Shown piece by piece: positions 10,270 through 57,869 of a stretch of DNA of 64,000 nucleotides. The translations under genes and the position numbers were made by a program. Numbering within the stretch: the first letter of the stretch is position 1; each line of letters starts with the position of its first letter. Origin of the DNA: Candidatus Omnitrophota bacterium (GTDB taxonomy: Bacteria > Omnitrophota > Gorgyraeia > Gygaellales > Profunditerraquicolaceae); NCBI GenBank assembly GCA_028715785.1, contig JAQURC010000001.1:76766-140765 (forward strand). The letters are read 5' to 3'. Below the pieces are notes generated by a model that saw only the letters and a program-made list of their open reading frames with translations, was not told the origin of the DNA and did not search any database.

Positions 10270-10347
10270 GCCCCTATTTAATTTTTTCTTGACAAATGAT
10301 ACTAACATGGTATCATATAATCTATAGATCAAAGGAGGTGATTGAGT

Positions 10348-10431
10348 ATGGATATCACGGTTAAATATATGCTCAGGCCGGTGGCGCATTGTAAAGAGGG
10401 TTGCAGTAAATTGTCCCGGGCAAGACGATAA
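10348..10431 (+). CDS. 27-aa upstream small ORF/leader peptide MDITVKYMLRPVAHCKEGCSKLSRARR
   Basis: Strong AAAGGAGGTGA RBS 7 nt upstream. Followed by a CGGGCA...TGCCCG hairpin and a T-run. Confidence 0.3.
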   Translation: MDITVKYMLRPVAHCKEGCSKLSRARR

Positions 10432-10472
10432 ACTGCCCGCTCGTTTTTATAGAATATCTTAGGAGTGTATTT

Positions 10473-12843: not shown

Positions 12844-12910
12844 CACCCCGCGCTTAAAGGAGTTGCGCGCCTGCCTGCCGGCAGGGGTGTGCCTTACTGG
12901 CAAGGAGGAA
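12844..12910 (+). repeat. Structured intergenic repeat, copy B
   Basis: CACCCCGCGCTTAAAGGAGTTGCGCGCCTGCCTGCCGGCAGGGGTGTGCCTTACTGGCAAGGAGG, immediately 5' of the fprA ATG. Confidence 0.7.
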
Positions 12911-12913
12911 ATT

Positions 12914-14101
12914 ATGGCGGCGCTAGAAATATTACCGGGCATATATTCGGTGGGAGTAGTAGATTGGAATGTGCGTAATTTCCACGGGCATACTTATACC
13001 ACCCGGAGGGGCTCGACTTACAACGCCTACCTGATTATCGATGAGAAAATTGCCCTTGTCGATACCGTTTATACCCCATTTTCTGAAGAATTGATCAATA
13101 ACATCAAAGAAGTTGTCCCTCTGGGAAAGATCGACTATATTATCGCCAATCATGTTGAGGTTGATCACTCCGGGGCCTTGCCCAGCATCATGGCGCTTTG
13201 CTCCAAAGCCAGGATTTTAGGTACCGCCAAATGCAAGGAAGGGCTTTACCGGCATTATTACCAAAACTGGAATTTTCAAACCGTTAAGACGGGAGATAAG
13301 TTAGAATTAGGTCGGCGCACCCTTAATTTTATCGAGGCTCCGATGATCCATTGGCCGGATAGCATGTTCACTTATTGCCCGCTTGATTCCCTGCTCATGC
13401 CTAATGACGCCTTTGGCCAGCATTTCGCCACCGCCGAGCGGTTTGACGACCAGGTTGATCAATGCGCGCTAATGGAAGAGGCAGAGGAGTATTATGCCAA
13501 TATCCTTTGGCCGCTTAATTCCGTAATTTCAAGGAAGATCCAGGAGATACAGAAATTAAATGTACCGATTAAAATGATCGCCCCCAGCCACGGGATTATC
13601 TGGCGTAAGGACCCGGCTAAGATAATCAACGCCTATCGTTCCTGGAGCGCGGGGGATACCAAAAATAAAGCGGTGGTTGTTTATGAGACGATGTGGGGGG
13701 CAACTGATAAGATGGCTAAACAAATAGCCCAAGGCATAGCCAGCCAAGGCATAGAAGTCAAACTTTATAATATCGCGGAAACCGACCGTACCGAGGTAAT
13801 TACGCAGATGTTATCGGCCAGAGGTTTTCTTTTTGGTTCCTCCACCCATGATAATGATATGCTGCCCAATATTGCCGCATTCCTGGAAATAGTCAAAGGC
13901 TTAAAACCTAAGGGCAGGCAGATTAGTTTCTTTGGTTCTTATGGCTGGGCCGGCGGGGCAGTTGGCGAGATGCAGGAGCTGCTCAAAGATAGCGGGGCGG
14001 ATTTTACTATCCCCGGCATAGCTTTTAAATATGTCCCTGATCAGGCCGAATTGGAGAGCTGTTTTGAATTTGGCAGCAAATTTGCCAAAATCTTGAAATG
14101 A
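12914..14101 (+). CDS. fprA: Flavodiiron protein (FprA/ROO; O2/NO reductase)
   Basis: Metallo-beta-lactamase-like N-domain with HVEVDHSG plus a C-terminal flavodoxin domain. ATG 12914 follows the AAGGAGG of the repeat element. Confidence 0.8.
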   Translation: MAALEILPGIYSVGVVDWNVRNFHGHTYTTRRGSTYNAYLIIDEKIALVDTVYTPFSEELINNIKEVVPLGKIDYIIANHVEVDHSGALPSIMALCSKARILGTAKCKEGLYRHYYQNWNFQTVKTGDKLELGRRTLNFIEAPMIHWPDSMFTYCPLDSLLMPNDAFGQHFATAERFDDQVDQCALMEEAEEYYANILWPLNSVISRKIQEIQKLNVPIKMIAPSHGIIWRKDPAKIINAYRSWSAGDTKNKAVVVYETMWGATDKMAKQIAQGIASQGIEVKLYNIAETDRTEVITQMLSARGFLFGSSTHDNDMLPNIAAFLEIVKGLKPKGRQISFFGSYGWAGGAVGEMQELLKDSGADFTIPGIAFKYVPDQAELESCFEFGSKFAKILK

Positions 14102-31688: not shown

Positions 31689-31719
31689 TCCTTTAACACC
31701 CCGCGCAAGGAGGAAAATT

Positions 31720-32172
31720 ATGTTGGCAGAAAAGATTTTTGACGATTATAAAGAGGCGATGAAGGCCAGGGATACTTTGAAGAGTTCGGTTTTGAGTTTT
31801 TTGCGCGCGGATATGCTTAATTTGGCAACCGCCAAGAAAAAAGATAAACTGGATGATGCCGAAATTATTACCGTAATCAAGAAACAAATAAAACAGCGCC
31901 AGGATTCTATCGAACAATTCACCAAAGGCGCAAGGTTGGATGCGGCGGAAAAAGAGAAAAAGGAATCAGAGATCCTGAAAAGCTATTTACCCGCGGAAAT
32001 GCCGGTTGAGGAGATCAAGCGTTTGATTGAAGAAGCGGTTGCGGCAACCGGAGCAAGCGGCATGAAAGATATGGGCCGGCTGATGAAGGAGCTGACGGTA
32101 AAGATCGCCGGAGGGGCTGACGGAAAGCTGGTCAGCGATTTGGTAAGGCAAAGATTAAGCACTCCTTCCTAA
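31720..32172 (+). CDS. yqeY: GatB/YqeY domain protein
   Basis: Full-length similarity to the YqeY pattern (150 aa). Preceded by the short form of the CACCCCGCGC element. Confidence 0.7.
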   Translation: MLAEKIFDDYKEAMKARDTLKSSVLSFLRADMLNLATAKKKDKLDDAEIITVIKKQIKQRQDSIEQFTKGARLDAAEKEKKESEILKSYLPAEMPVEEIKRLIEEAVAATGASGMKDMGRLMKELTVKIAGGADGKLVSDLVRQRLSTPS

Positions 32173-33381: not shown

Positions 33382-33505
33382 ATTTCAGTTGATTTATTCG
33401 CATATTTTGCTAGAATTATTGTTGGCAAGGAGGTGAACTGAATTCCGGTAATTCTTCCAAAATAACAAAACGCCATAATAATAAATTTTAGAGAGGAGAG
33501 TAGAT

Positions 33506-37270: not shown

Positions 37271-37285
37271 TTTTATGGAGGAATC

Positions 37286-38039: not shown

Positions 38040-38051
38040 TCAGGAGGAATA

Positions 38052-39852: not shown

Positions 39853-39960
39853 ATGAAATTTGCAGGATGGGTTTTCCTGATTTTTTCCTGGGGATTAATT
39901 ATCGGGCTAGCCGCTTTCTGTTTTATCAAAGTTTTTTCAAAAAACACCCCGCGCTTATAA
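39853..39960 (+). CDS. MetS-like single-TM microprotein partner of the NSS transporter
   Basis: 35 aa, MKFAGWVFLIFSWGLIIGLAAFCFIKVF. ATG 3 nt after the NSS stop. C-terminus NTPRL* is encoded by the repeat element. Confidence 0.5.
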   Translation: MKFAGWVFLIFSWGLIIGLAAFCFIKVFSKNTPRL

Positions 39961-40014
39961 GGAATTGCGCGCCTGCCTGCCGGCAGGCAGGGGTATGCCC
40001 TTGTGGGCAAGGAG
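39943..40014 (+). repeat. Structured intergenic repeat, copy D
   Basis: AACACCCCGCGCTTATAAGGAATTGCGCG, then CCTGCCTGCCGGCAGGCAGG (a 20-bp perfect palindrome), then GGTATGCCCTTGTGGGCA, then AGGAG. Other copies at 87-142 and 12844-12910; short form at 31695-31713. Confidence 0.7.
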
Positions 40015-40019
40015 CTAAG

Positions 40020-40403
40020 ATGAAAAAATTTTTATCATTAGGTTTGGGGTTAATGCTGCTGGTATCAGTTTACGGGTGCGCGCCTCTGATTATCGGGGCA
40101 GCCGCGGGCGGTTTGGGCGCATACGCGATAAGCAAAGATACTGTGCAGGGGGATACCGATAAGAATTATGAAGCGCTTTGGGAATCAGCTTTAAATGTTT
40201 CCAGGACATACGGATTAATCCAGCAGGAGAATGCCGGAACCGGTTACATTGAATTGGGGGCGCAGTCCACTAAAGTCTGGATAAAATTAGTCCGCCTGAC
40301 CCAGGCGACGACCCGGGTTAAGGTCTCTGCGCGTAAATACCATTTCCCGAATATGGAGCTGGCCCAGGATATTTTTGTCAAGATTATTACAGGCGCAAGA
40401 TAA
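40020..40403 (+). CDS. Lipoprotein, unknown function
   Basis: Signal peptide with lipobox VYGC. The track ORF from 39867 is an over-extension into the repeat element. Confidence 0.5.
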   Translation: MKKFLSLGLGLMLLVSVYGCAPLIIGAAAGGLGAYAISKDTVQGDTDKNYEALWESALNVSRTYGLIQQENAGTGYIELGAQSTKVWIKLVRLTQATTRVKVSARKYHFPNMELAQDIFVKIITGAR

Positions 40404-55152: not shown

Positions 55153-57819
55153 ATGAGAAATAATAATTTATATCTATTCACGGATGAGCGGGGGAGCTTT
55201 AGGTCATCCTCCGCGGATAAGATAAAAAGCCTGTATTTACCGCTTTGTAACCAAGCTTTAATGTCATCTATTTCTCCGGATTTAGGCGGAGATATAAAAA
55301 GCGGCCAGAATAGTTTTTTGCTTGAGCCGGTTTCCAGGATCGATCTTTCTCTATCCAGGGCTTCCAGGAATTTCTGGGTCTATATCAATCAAGATAAAAT
55401 CTGGTCGGCCACCGGTGTCTCTAAAAACCTAAAACAGATCCAAGAGGATAAATTTACGCTGGAAGCCGGCCAGCTTTGGCAGCGGATCAGCCGGGAAAAT
55501 AGAAATATCGGTTTAAAATCCACGATTTTGTCTTTTGTACCCACGGGCCCCGATGCGTTGGAGGTGATGCAGGTCAGCCTTACCAATATAAGCAAAAAAA
55601 AGATCAGCTTTATTCCTTGCGCGGCGATACCTTTATACTGCCGCAGCGCCGATAATTTACGGGATCACCGCCAGGTAACCGCACTGCTTACCAGAATTAA
55701 AGAAGATAAGTACGGTATTAAAGTCAAGCCGACATTGCTTTTTGATGAATCCGGCCATAAGCCGAATAATACAGTTTATTTTGCGGCTGCTTGCGATAAT
55801 AAGGGGAAACCCGCGCGGTATATGTATCCTACCCAAGAGATGTTCTGCGGAGAGTCCGGAGACCTGGAAGCCCCGGAAGCTGTTTTTAAAAACAAGCTTC
55901 CCCGAAAAATACCGATACAGGGTAAAGAGCCGATGGCGGCCATGCGTTTTGCCGAAGTCAGCCTGTTGCCCGGAGCCCGGGCAACATATGTTATTGTTAC
56001 GGGGCTAAGCCAGAAGGATTGCAACTTAAGCTCTCTAATAAGCAAATTCGGCCAAAGTAAAAAAATAGATGCGCATTTTGAACAAACTAAAAATTTTTGG
56101 CAGGAGCAGTCTAAGCTGTTGGATGTTTCCAGCGGCAATAAGCATTTTGATAATTGGCTGCGCTGGGTAAATATCCAGCCGGTTTTAAGAAAGATCTTCG
56201 GCTGTTCATTCCTGCCCGATTTTGATTATGGAAAAGGCGGCCGGGGATGGCGCGACCTCTGGCAGGATTGCCTGGGGCTTATTTTAAATAATCCGCAGCC
56301 GGTGCGGCAGCTTTTAATCGATAATTTTTGCGGGGTCAAGATCGATGGCTCTAACGCCACGATTATCGGTAAAAAACCGGGTGAATTTATCGCTGACCGT
56401 AATAATATCAGCCGGGTATGGATGGACCACGGAGTCTGGCCTTTGCTTACCCTGGATTTGTATATTCAGGAAACAGGAGACCTGGGAATTTTATTTGAAC
56501 ATGCCACTTATTTTAAGAACCATCAAATAAACCGCGCCCAAGGTATTGATTATCAATGGAACGCTTCTTACGGGAACAAGCTTAAGACAAAATCCGGGAA
56601 AATTTATCAAGGCACTATATTTGAGCATCTGTTGGTGCAAAACCTGGTGCAATTTTATAATGTTGGCGCGCATAACCATGTCCGATTAGAAGGCGCGGAT
56701 TGGAATGACGGCTTGGATATGGCCAAAGAGCATGGAGAAAGCGTGGCTTTTTCTGCGATGTACGCCCAAAATCTTTCGACTTTAGCGCAACTGGCGCTTA
56801 AATGCAATGGAAAAGGTCTGGATGCTGCCGAAGAATTAAAAATTTTACTCGCTGATTTTAATTATCAGGACATCGCCCAGAAACATAAGCTGCTGGAAAA
56901 ATATTTTTCTAAAACTAAAGAAAATATTTCCGGCAAAAAAATTCGCCTGGATGCGGCGGTATTGAGCCGTAACTTAAATAAAAAATCTCTTTGGATGAAA
57001 AAACATATTCAGGAAAGCGAGTGGCTGAAAGAAGGGTTCTTTAACGGATATTACGATAATCGCAAGAACAGGGTCGACGGCAAAAGAGGAAATCTCTTGC
57101 GGGTGAATTTGGCCTCCCAGGTGTTTCCGATTATGAGCGGTGTAGCCAGGCCCGGGCAAACAAAGAAAATTTTAGCCAATGTCTACCGGTATCTATATGA
57201 TACTTCTTTAGGCGGAATTCATCTGAACACTGATTTTAAGAAAGAGCAGCATGATTTAGGCCGGGCGTTTTCTTTTGCTTACGGAGATAAAGAAAATGGC
57301 GCGGTGTTTAGCCACATGGTAGTGATGTTTGCTTATGCTTTATATAAACAGGGTTATTCCCAAGAAGGGTGGAGGGCTTTAAGTTCGCTATATAAAATGG
57401 CCGCCAATACCGCGCGCAGCAAGATTTATCCCTGCCTGCCGGAATATTTTGACCTTACTGGTCGGGGAATGTATAGTTATCTTACCGGCTCAGCAAGTTG
57501 GTTTACGCTTACTTTGCTTACCCAGTCATTTGGGGTCAGGGGGCTTGATGGCGACCTGCTTATTGAGCCAAAGCTTTCCAGTGAACAATTCAAATCCTCT
57601 GATAAAATAAGCATCAGCCGTGTTTTTGCCGATAGAAACTTAAAAATAGTTTTCCTGAATCCCAAGCGCCTGGGGGCGGAAAAATACCGGATCAAGCGTT
57701 TCCTGCTCAACACGGAACAGCTCCCGATTGAAGAAGCTACGCGGATAGTTGTGTCCAGAGAAGTTATCGCCATCCTGCCGAAAAATAAGTTCAATATATT
57801 GGAAGTCTATTTAGGATAA
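55153..57819 (+). CDS. GH94-like glycoside phosphorylase (cellobiose/chitobiose phosphorylase superfamily)
   Basis: 888 aa; GGRGWRDLWQDCLG and EGADWNDGLDM motifs characteristic of GH94 catalytic (alpha/alpha)6 domains. Confidence 0.5.
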   Translation: MRNNNLYLFTDERGSFRSSSADKIKSLYLPLCNQALMSSISPDLGGDIKSGQNSFLLEPVSRIDLSLSRASRNFWVYINQDKIWSATGVSKNLKQIQEDKFTLEAGQLWQRISRENRNIGLKSTILSFVPTGPDALEVMQVSLTNISKKKISFIPCAAIPLYCRSADNLRDHRQVTALLTRIKEDKYGIKVKPTLLFDESGHKPNNTVYFAAACDNKGKPARYMYPTQEMFCGESGDLEAPEAVFKNKLPRKIPIQGKEPMAAMRFAEVSLLPGARATYVIVTGLSQKDCNLSSLISKFGQSKKIDAHFEQTKNFWQEQSKLLDVSSGNKHFDNWLRWVNIQPVLRKIFGCSFLPDFDYGKGGRGWRDLWQDCLGLILNNPQPVRQLLIDNFCGVKIDGSNATIIGKKPGEFIADRNNISRVWMDHGVWPLLTLDLYIQETGDLGILFEHATYFKNHQINRAQGIDYQWNASYGNKLKTKSGKIYQGTIFEHLLVQNLVQFYNVGAHNHVRLEGADWNDGLDMAKEHGESVAFSAMYAQNLSTLAQLALKCNGKGLDAAEELKILLADFNYQDIAQKHKLLEKYFSKTKENISGKKIRLDAAVLSRNLNKKSLWMKKHIQESEWLKEGFFNGYYDNRKNRVDGKRGNLLRVNLASQVFPIMSGVARPGQTKKILANVYRYLYDTSLGGIHLNTDFKKEQHDLGRAFSFAYGDKENGAVFSHMVVMFAYALYKQGYSQEGWRALSSLYKMAANTARSKIYPCLPEYFDLTGRGMYSYLTGSASWFTLTLLTQSFGVRGLDGDLLIEPKLSSEQFKSSDKISISRVFADRNLKIVFLNPKRLGAEKYRIKRFLLNTEQLPIEEATRIVVSREVIAILPKNKFNILEVYLG

Positions 57820-57823
57820 AAAT

Positions 57824-57869
57824 AAAGGGGACGGTTCTATTTTTCCTAGAACCGTCCCCTTTATTTTTT
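57824..57869. terminator. Strong bidirectional rho-independent terminator (repeat module, copy 1)
   Basis: AAAGGGGACGGTTCTA-TTTTTCC-TAGAACCGTCCCCTTT, a 16-bp perfect stem, then ATTTTTT. Confidence 0.85.

Follow-up and report, generated by a model that had tools for sequence, protein, structure and literature searches.

A stretch of 64,000 nucleotides from a Candidatus Omnitrophota bacterium (GenBank assembly GCA_028715785.1, contig JAQURC010000001.1, positions 76,766 to 140,765 of the forward strand; the whole stretch is called the window here and is numbered from its first nucleotide) carries three structured repeats at gene junctions, designated c1, c2, and c3. We consider these sequences to be members of a family of small, mobile, non-autonomous repeats found in Candidatus Omnitrophota, not a conserved regulatory RNA, a reading to which we assign a probability of roughly 70%. 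All three copies are missing or different in form at the same junction in relatives with 78–96% protein identity, further copies occur in other Omnitrophota genomes, and the stems of the repeat covary. The original prediction, made from the letters of the window, had put forward either a mobile structured repeat of the repetitive extragenic palindromic (REP) or MITE type (MITEs being miniature transposable elements with inverted repeats) that inserts at gene junctions, or a conserved element for mRNA processing or coupling. Insertion polymorphism at every window copy, together with the copies elsewhere and the covarying stems, bears out the first; the second is not supported as the primary nature of the sequences, because junction occupancy varies and copy number is 0, 1, or 4 at one junction. 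Confinement of the copies to the window and a lack of covariation had been named as findings that would speak against the prediction, and the opposite was found on both counts.

Copies and anatomy of the 46-nt unit

The long copies predicted at 87–142, 12844–12910, and 39943–40014 were all found, no more than 2 nt away. The window copies, the parts and ORFs assigned to them, and the empty target sites lie on the plus strand, and sequences sampled elsewhere are given as L numbers, with positions after a colon. Copy c1 (89–134) is one 46-nt unit, c2 (12844–12903) is a unit of the 46-nt type plus a 16-nt palindrome, and c3 (39945–40010), the copy flagged at the outset, is a 46-nt unit plus a 20-nt palindrome. 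A covariance model trained on copies from other genomes alone was run over the window with filters off and recovered exactly c1, c2, and c3 (E = 1e-7 for c1, and 2e-4 and 6e-4 for the other two), the next-best match having E = 0.4, so the resemblance goes far beyond chance. A truncated fourth copy, a 12-nt remnant at 31697–31708, consists of the 5′ arm CACCCCGCGC and AA, with the native GGAGG of yqeY coming directly after it (ATG at 31720).

The anatomy given here comes from roughly 60 units found at 20 loci. With a length of 46 nt, the unit runs from CACC through a hairpin A and a hairpin B to a terminal AA. Hairpin A spans 33 nt, with 10 bp, one bulged C, and an 11–12-nt loop of the type T-W-A-n-n-G-G-n-W-T-T between the 5′ arm (A/G)YAC-C-CCGCGC and the 3′ arm GCGCGG-GTRT; hairpin B has 4–5 bp, often with an nnGT tetraloop. 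The motifs listed in the original prediction (AACACCCCGCGC, a GCGC...GCGCG hairpin, and a TGCC..GGCA hairpin) are all present, and the unit also contains an outer CACC/GGTG stem that this description had missed. The predicted fold energies range from -26 to -48 kcal/mol. In the L116 subfamily the outer ACACC/GGTGT is kept and the inner stem is wholly different (ACACCCAACC/GGTTGGTGT; CAACC/GGTTG). The loops of the window's clade show AAGGA(G/A), which resembles a Shine-Dalgarno (SD) sequence, and those outside the clade are not SD-like (CGGAA, TGGTA).

In c1 the parts are CACCCCGCGC, the loop TAATAACGTATT, and GCGCGGG, followed by hairpin B (GCCC-TTTT-GGGC) and AA; the outer 3′ arm of its hairpin A is degenerate (CCT). 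Copy c2 has the TAG stop of an FAD/NAD reductase gene on its left and the native GGAGG of a flavodiiron (fprA-like) gene (ATG at 12914) on its right. In c3 the 5′ arm of hairpin A lies at 39944–39954, the loop at 39955–39966, and the 3′ arm at 39967–39971 plus 39992–39996; hairpin B (GCCC-TTGT-GGGC) follows at 39997–40008 and the terminal AA at 40009–40010. Its minimum free energy is -37.1 kcal/mol (z = -2.4). Outside the repeat, at 40011–40022, lie the native ribosome-binding site (RBS) GGAGC and the ATG (40020) of a lipoprotein gene assigned to DUF3568 by Pfam.

Both stems covary. Across 37 distinct units, 98.1% of the cells of stem A are paired and 6 of its 10 pairs have changed on both sides (19 cells), a level reached by none of 500 shuffles, and slid registers drop to 20–64% pairing. 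For stem B, 22 units of one geometry gave 98.2% paired cells, 25 double-change cells, and a covariation score of 0.77, against 0.25 for shuffles. A perfect small hairpin B was found in 44 of 45 units, with 25 distinct B stems. Its non-Watson-Crick pairs are eight G.U and no A.C on the sense strand, which identifies this strand as the one that folds; in stem A, wobbles and C.A mismatches are about balanced.

The palindrome can be separated from the 46-nt unit: it is an independent, second insertion that sits in hairpin A across from the bulge. It had been described for all three copies; a CTGCCGGCAG-type palindrome is indeed present in c2 and c3 and is missing from c1. The c2 palindrome (CCTGCCTGCCGGCAGG, 16 nt, 12870–12885) sits between GCGCG and GGTGT of hairpin A, and that of c3 (CCTGCCTGCCGGCAGGCAGG, 20 nt, 39972–39991) is likewise nested in hairpin A. 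Its separability follows from three observations: c2 and c3 minus the palindrome align without gaps to short forms from elsewhere, the L108 orthologue of c3 is otherwise the same unit without it, and in L110 CCTGCCTGCCGGCAGGCAGG stands alone before the yqeY RBS, without hairpin A. The string TGCGCG-CCTGCCTGCCGGCAAGGCAGG-GGTAC occurs in L084:9451–9480, L094:66–95, and L098:1165–1194, on contigs of 37–39% G+C and in a different conserved, non-coding-looking context (…CCACGAAGCGGTCGAGGCGACACC…); these CCTGCC...GGCAGG look-alike contexts had no Rfam family match and may represent either a structured RNA with no link to the repeat or a further host of the palindrome. Similar junctions in relatives also contain long hairpins that look unrelated (L116:9795–9885, L102:9955–10000, and L110:5025–5050), the one in L116 (-48 kcal/mol, z = -4.6) having a CTGCC-TTCG-GGCAG core that resembles the palindrome. 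Omnitrophota junctions seem to host several palindromic insert families.

To find the unit elsewhere, we scanned one genome per species with a pattern, which gave 83 stretches. Two were true copies (L028 and L039), both from the same Omnitrophota metagenome-assembled genome (MAG) of 42% G+C, where they precede metY-like and clpP-like genes; the remaining 81 were chance matches in G+C-rich genomes. A stricter pattern over metagenome contigs gave 16 loci with 13 true copies, which precede genes for lipoproteins as well as pfk, cysK, pilT, pgi, and Asp23-like and rodZ-like genes. The window's FprA-like, SNF-symporter, and ZIP proteins have homologues labeled Candidatus Omnitrophota/Omnitrophica, whose contigs (L100–L116) are syntenic with the window; copies were found among these loci too. 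The density of units varied, with 12 in the 12 kb sampled of L109, 6 in 21.5 kb of L108, 3 plus the remnant in the 64 kb of the window, and none in 21 kb of L102 or in 43 kb of L112 and L113 together. At the Rfam gathering threshold the window yielded four tRNAs only, and in E-value mode c3 and the L085 array gave only chance-level matches (E ≥ 0.3, with scores far under gathering). A few cultivated lineages are known to carry small intergenic repeats, and a single literature search on Omnitrophota found none described for that phylum.

Filled and empty junctions

The c1 junction reads TTATTATAA^AAATTAAGGTG in L114 and L115, where the neighboring ZIP protein is 96% identical, and the window has exactly 46 extra nucleotides. 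The insertion converts the end of the upstream open reading frame (ORF) from ...PLSYYKN* to ...PLSYYNTPR*; this ORF (3' end at 3–101) is the only open frame, the other two being closed earlier, and its last four codons and stop lie within c1. At the c2 junction, the spacer between the reductase gene and fprA is 11–13 nt long and has no element in L100 (94% identity), L101, L105, L106, or L113. At the c3 junction, L108 has one unit without the palindrome, L109 has four tandem units, and L110 and L112 have none. The uninterrupted sequence of L112 (...AAGAAGGAGATAAAATGA) places c3 at AA^GGAG inside an ancestral small ORF. In the window this ORF (39853–39960, 35 aa, hydrophobic, downstream of an SNF-family symporter gene) has the altered C-terminus ...KVFSKNTPRL*; its ancestral form in L112 ended ...KVFSKKEIK*, with a stop overlapping the lipoprotein ATG.

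That two unrelated ORFs both end NTPR(L) had been noticed correctly, as ...YYNTPR at c1 and ...KNTPRL* at c3 each end inside the element. The fusion to the upstream stop codon was said to be general and applies to c1 and c3 only, the ORF upstream of c2 terminating at a TAG directly 5′ of the element. Where it occurs, it arose because a unit landed in the final codons of the preceding ORF (...YYKN* and ...KVFSKKEIK* in the ancestral forms), and it is no design feature. Of the three reading frames of the unit, the first is open, another meets a stop in the loop, and the third does so only past the RBS; a design with stops in all three frames was rejected, since only one frame stops within the unit. 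Because of the open frame, a mechanical ORF list contains a spurious 178-aa ORF (39867–40403) that runs through c3 into the lipoprotein gene. The true start of that gene is the ATG at 40020, which yields a lipoprotein-type signal peptide, and junctions of this sort may be mis-annotated by gene callers.

The window is empty at four more junctions that relatives have filled, namely at 10334, 33429, 38043, and 37277. The first, CAAA^GGAGG (10331–10338), lies in the leader of a small ORF upstream of an Rrf2 regulator gene and is filled in L100:5848–5893. The second, GCAA^GGAGG (33426–33433), lies near the 5′ end of the leader of a PG_binding_1 gene and is filled in L108:5029 (one unit) and L109:4507 (three units). 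The third, TCA^GGAGG (38041–38047), is filled in both L108:9706 and L109:9706, and the fourth, TAT^GGAGG (37275–37281), which follows a patatin-family gene, corresponds to four tandem units in L109:8668–8853.

Copies are also found as arrays, nested, and as remnants. Arrays of 46-nt units have one to four copies at the same junction in the window, L108, and L109, and those of L109 mix unit variants in the order a-b-b-a. In L101, by comparison with its orthologue L100, one copy is nested in the loop of another; further cases are in L085, L096, and L105. Besides the remnant at 31697 of the window, another was found at L101:8519. The position of the window remnant is taken in L108 by two units, mscL, and a third unit. 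This mscL gene (L108:2863–3174) stands between pfkB and yqeY in L108 only, bracketed by repeat units, two before and one after; the junction elsewhere has just the 12-nt remnant (window 31689–31719) or a lone palindrome (L110:3190–3240). The repeats may mark the gain or loss of mscL.

Several neighbors of these junctions deserve mention in their own right. The PG_binding_1 gene is preceded by a conserved leader of about 100 nt that begins AAGGAGGTGAA...AATTCC (window 33429–33500, L108:5076–5158, L109:4647–4733, and L110:5050–5145), has its own promoter-like TTGATT-N17-TAGAAT, and has no start codon after the first GGAGG; it may be an uncharacterized leader RNA. The small cysteine-containing ORF at 10349–10432 (MDITVKYMLRPVAHCKEGCSKLSRARR*), directly upstream of the Rrf2 regulator gene, is kept in L100, L101, and L102 and has a near-consensus sigma-70 promoter (TTGACA-N17-TATCAT, 10289–10317); it may encode a leader peptide or a small protein of an oxidative-stress gene cluster. 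Between c1 and the ZIP transporter gene, a tiny and very basic 26-aa ORF (151–231, MGKRKRRGKLNWRSKKANKGRKPNLG) is kept almost letter for letter in L114, L115, and L116 and had no Pfam match at E ≤ 0.01; it may encode a small ribosomal protein of the Thx type or be some other genuine micro-gene. Farther away, a perfect 22-nt inverted repeat right after an 888-aa ORF (57818–57868; AAAAATAAAGGGGACGGTTCTA / TAGAACCGTCCCCTTTATTTTT, 7-nt gap) looks like a bidirectional intrinsic terminator. Similar GGGGAC-type hairpins are present in L092 and L108.

Target site, predicted effect on the mRNA, and possible routes of spread

With the unit taken as YACC...AA, the 3′ flank is a native GGAG(G) in six of the eight filled/empty comparisons and AA(A)TT in the other two (c1 and a loop insertion); the 5′ flank ends in purines (AA, AG, GA, GG). 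No target duplication was found in the filled junctions read (TAG|CACC...AA|GGAGG at c2; TGA|TACC...AA|GGAGG at L109:8668), and c1 could pass as an AA duplication. In the RBS-adjacent copies, hairpin B invariably ends 2 nt 5′ of GGAGG. The original prediction had counted an AAGGAG(G) 6–10 nt before the ATG as part of the repeat. An AAGGAG or AAGGTG does lie 5–10 nt upstream of the ATG, but the RBS is native to each locus and outside the repeat, because the bases past GGAGG match empty orthologous sites (e.g., AAGGAGGTGAT in the window, L100, L101, and L102) and because c1 lies 8 nt from its RBS. Since the GGAGG at 33429 has no start codon and c3 lies inside an ORF, insertion is linked to the target sequence and not just to tolerance in spacers.

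Polarity is nearly uniform. Copies are co-oriented with the downstream gene at 32 occupied junctions (27 of them non-orthologous), versus one antisense copy (L101:13169), whose site is a purine run on the other strand. As judged by GC skew, the strand that carries the element is in nearly all loci also the one rich in G and in genes. With its target beside an SD sequence, a copy comes to lie in the same orientation as the genes, downstream of a stop codon or transcription start and upstream of the RBS that follows. Judging by this position, the copies are probably co-transcribed with the flanking genes. A scan at c3 found no terminator-like or promoter-like site, no T-run follows the hairpins, and both a terminator and a promoter reading were rejected.

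The predicted consequences for translation are small. Over 23 junctions (two mis-assigned ones were dropped, and one other gave no SD or ORF), the unpaired probability of the RBS core predicted by ViennaRNA was 0.52 for the natural insert, fell to 0.37 when shuffled sequence of matched composition took its place, and was again 0.52 once the element was deleted; the natural value exceeded the shuffled one in 17 of the 23 junctions (Wilcoxon p = 0.008). As the hairpins are self-contained, the G+C-rich insert would not pair with the RBS, and downstream translation would be largely unaffected. In these folding models the unit appears neutral for downstream initiation, whether by construction or because selection has filtered the copies. 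Effects on the mRNA (an exonuclease barrier, uncoupling of translationally coupled ORFs, rewritten C-termini) would be by-products, sometimes co-opted. Two candidate switches were rejected. Pairing of the CACCCC end with the RBS was predicted for c1 only (ACACC with a native GGUGU), and we take it as a coincidence because c1 has no canonical outer 3′ arm; an alternative hairpin, CCUUG-UGGG-CAAGG, that hides part of the RBS in the GCCCTTGTGGGC subfamily is not family-wide and is less stable than hairpin B.

As to its insertion, the unit goes in one polarity and without target duplication into purine runs on the strand that reads CACC...AA, its usual site being immediately 5′ of the GGAG(G) core of an RBS and, less often, a site with an AA(A)TT 3′ flank, among them the loop of a copy already in place. 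Because AA^GGAGG is restored every time, successive hits would build head-to-tail arrays. Movement would most likely pass through the folded sense strand as single-stranded DNA (ssDNA), with an HUH/Y1-type enzyme (IS200/IS605- or RAYT-like) acting in trans; strand-specific hairpins, one conserved flank, and the absence of terminal inverted repeats (TIRs) and target-site duplications (TSDs) suggest this route. Going further, the 46-nt unit might be the substrate of an undescribed single-strand insertion system that reads either the 5′ edge of the SD sequence (AA^GGAGG) or, more generally, hairpin loops and purine runs that are single-stranded, and recognition could use pairing with the unit's own anti-SD-like CACC(C/U)C end. 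The repeat would then be mobile DNA that homes to RBSs and is built not to disturb them. We put this extension forward tentatively, as a possibility about which we are doubtful.

Several points weigh against the account given so far. The orientation of the copies relative to genes is confounded with that relative to replication, and sense-strand folding therefore fits RNA as well as ssDNA; strong covariation and the RBS accessibility kept in the folding models would also fit selection at the RNA level. The alignment of hairpin B was limited to one geometry, which favors pairing, and most loci came from pattern or synteny searches, which biases the copy densities. The insertion point is ambiguous by 1–2 nt owing to the flanking A's, and the loop target GG^AATT is not obviously equal to AA^GGAGG. 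The IS200/IS605 paradigm puts the conserved flank 5′ of the active strand, which would make the antisense strand the active one and would conflict with the sense-strand G.U pairs of hairpin B. Finally, a tblastn search of 329 kb of sampled Omnitrophota DNA for a transposase or mobilizing gene, with an approximate IS200 TnpA query, returned chance matches only (E > 3).

The first alternative is that the unit is primarily a selected cis-acting RNA module, intercistronic or in the 5′ untranslated region (UTR), that stabilizes or processes the mRNA, or insulates or enhances translation initiation of the downstream gene; it would be portable, many genes having recruited it, with mobility as its mere means of delivery. 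Such a module would explain why the unit occupies the sense strand of a transcribed region in 32 of 33 junctions, why both stems covary with their G.U wobbles on that strand, why hairpin B keeps its 2-nt distance from GGAGG, and why the RBS is predicted to be as accessible as without the element and more so than with shuffled inserts. The SD-like loops of the window's clade also fit it, as does persistence at orthologous sites (L100:8147/L101:8037, L108:9706/L109:9706, and c3/L108/L109). However, those loops are not SD-like outside the clade, and persistence is set against turnover: each window copy is absent in a relative at 78–96% identity, the window has nothing at four sites that relatives have filled, one junction has 0, 1, or 4 copies, and L112 and L113 carry none in 43 kb. 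The downstream genes share nothing (fprA, lipoproteins, clpP, metY, cysK, pfk, pgi, pilT, Asp23, rodZ, yqeY), insertions harm the ends of ORFs and have disrupted an overlap of stop and start codons, a single copy lies antisense, and at one target no start codon follows the GGAGG. We therefore find a primary RNA function rather improbable.

The second alternative dispenses with a dedicated transposase. The repeat would spread by recombination or replication template-switching at shared microhomologies (an A-rich stop region on the left and AAGGAGG on the right), and arrays would arise by slippage or unequal crossing-over. Most copies do have an A-rich left flank (TAA, AAA, CAA) and AAGGAGG on the right, and the lack of target duplication, the 46-nt period of the arrays, the failure to see a transposase in the sampled DNA with the approximate query, and the deletion scar at 31697, with its end-points at the element borders, all agree with this route. 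It does not account for the clean c1 insertion, which is 8 nt from the nearest GG of the RBS and has flanks of only AA/AAATT, or for the four independent cases in which a copy is nested in a hairpin loop 4 nt before the 3′ arm; left flanks of TAG and TGA give no homology, and 2–7 nt of homology is very short for the frequency and precision observed. Spread of this kind is distinctly unlikely.

That the palindromes are DNA-level protein-binding sites (operators of a global regulator), or terminators or attenuators, is scarcely credible: hairpin A does form an inverted repeat that is close to perfect and keeps its outer half-sites (ACACC/GGTGT), and copies lie near promoters in L100, L092, and L028, but the inner arms change by compensatory substitutions that keep the pairing and not the sequence, the copies lie mainly within operons, the hairpins are followed by no T-run and no terminator-like site was reported at c3, and operators would not be expected to form tandem arrays, to nest in one another, or to show presence/absence polymorphism.

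Significance and comparison with known repeat families

Under the mobile-repeat reading, the repeats have consequences for annotation and for comparison of strains. They rewrite ORF ends (…KN* to …NTPR* and …KKEIK* to …NTPRL*), create a spurious ORF, break a stop/start overlap, mark a junction of differing gene content between relatives (mscL in L108), and will probably break up or confuse MAG assemblies and gene calls. As they turn over rapidly, they can serve as strain markers in metagenomes. Of most interest is whether their placement at the 5′ edge of the SD sequence reflects true target recognition; if the preference is targeting and not selection, this would be a natural system that homes to ribosome-binding sites.

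The family shares with the REP/BIME and REPIN-RAYT sequences of enterobacteria and pseudomonads its short, G+C-rich imperfect palindromes in many intergenic copies (here about 60 units at 20 loci), and IS elements that insert into REP loops offer an analogue of the nested copies. Also REP/BIME-like are the restriction to transcribed intergenic space, the mosaic and clustered arrangement seen in BIMEs, the occupancy that varies between close strains, and incidental effects on mRNA stability (PMC3337134, PMC3184786). The differences are as clear. There is no GTAG/GTGG head; the Omnitrophota units begin (A/G)YACC, and no such tetranucleotide is conserved at either end. The mobile unit of REPINs is an inverted REP doublet (PMC3337134), whereas the Omnitrophota arrays are head-to-tail in one orientation, minus-strand matches of the covariance model being low-scoring shadows of the plus-strand ones. 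REPIN systems have a cognate single-copy RAYT (HUH/Y1) gene, typically with repeats on either side of it, and no RAYT gene was seen in the 329 kb searched with the approximate TnpA query. REPs lie after the stop codon at any distance, while the Omnitrophota unit abuts the RBS of the next gene and has a second, covarying small hairpin; there is no sequence similarity, and the phylum is different. Unlike MITEs, the unit has no TIRs at its ends (CACC... / ...AA), as ACACC/GGTGT closes hairpin A with hairpin B and AA outside it, and it has no TSD.

MIRUs (mycobacterial interspersed repetitive units), as far as they are summarized in PMC3184786 (citing Supply et al. 1997), are similar in being 40–100-bp units in variable-number tandem arrays, intercistronic in operons, co-oriented and co-transcribed, with ends that overlap the termini of flanking ORFs and with filled and empty sites between species. 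They differ in that, in the same summary, MIRUs have short direct repeats at filled sites and internal bridging ORFs (PMC3184786). The Omnitrophota unit has no such duplication, its 46 nt are not a multiple of three, it overlaps the upstream ORF in only two of the three window copies, and it is defined by two covarying hairpins. Correia (NEMIS) and ERIC sequences are likewise small and co-transcribed with their neighbors, and they form long mRNA hairpins that alter processing or stability (PMC3184786). They are 100–150 bp long, with terminal inverted repeats, TA duplication (Correia), and either orientation, none of which was seen in the Omnitrophota unit.

Two further candidates, from outside these families, were rejected. 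For an integron attC site, the consensus has no R''/R' cores (RYYYAAC ... GTTRRRY), and the flanking genes are syntenic housekeeping genes, not cassettes; for a CsrA/RsmA-binding leader (GGA in the loop plus the RBS), many loops have GGT or no GG (TGGTATT, ATGTATT, ATAAATT). Synthetic 5′-UTR insulators of the RiboJ type are similar in one respect, namely a tight local hairpin just 5′ of the RBS that is predicted by folding to block upstream pairing; the Omnitrophota element has no ribozyme and is natural and mobile.

The likeness to IS200/IS605 elements and PATEs lies in the absence of TIRs and TSDs, in hairpins on one strand, and in one polarity beside a short conserved flank. IS608 and ISDra2 leave clean empty sites that resemble precise insertion or excision, as seen here. 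The conserved flank of the Omnitrophota unit (GGAGG or AATT) is, however, 3′ of the best-folding strand and not 5′ as in IS608, the hairpin stems vary widely between copies in one genome, and neither a TnpA nor a TnpB gene was seen in the 329 kb searched by tblastn with the approximate TnpA query.

The Omnitrophota unit lacks at least one defining feature of each known family tested, and we classify it as a new REP/MIRU-like member of the small non-autonomous intergenic repeats, in a phylum for which the literature search found none described. It combines features that are usually separate: a hairpin like that of REPs, tandem units in operons like those of MIRUs, insertion without TSD like that of IS200, and a strong preference for the position just before GGAGG.

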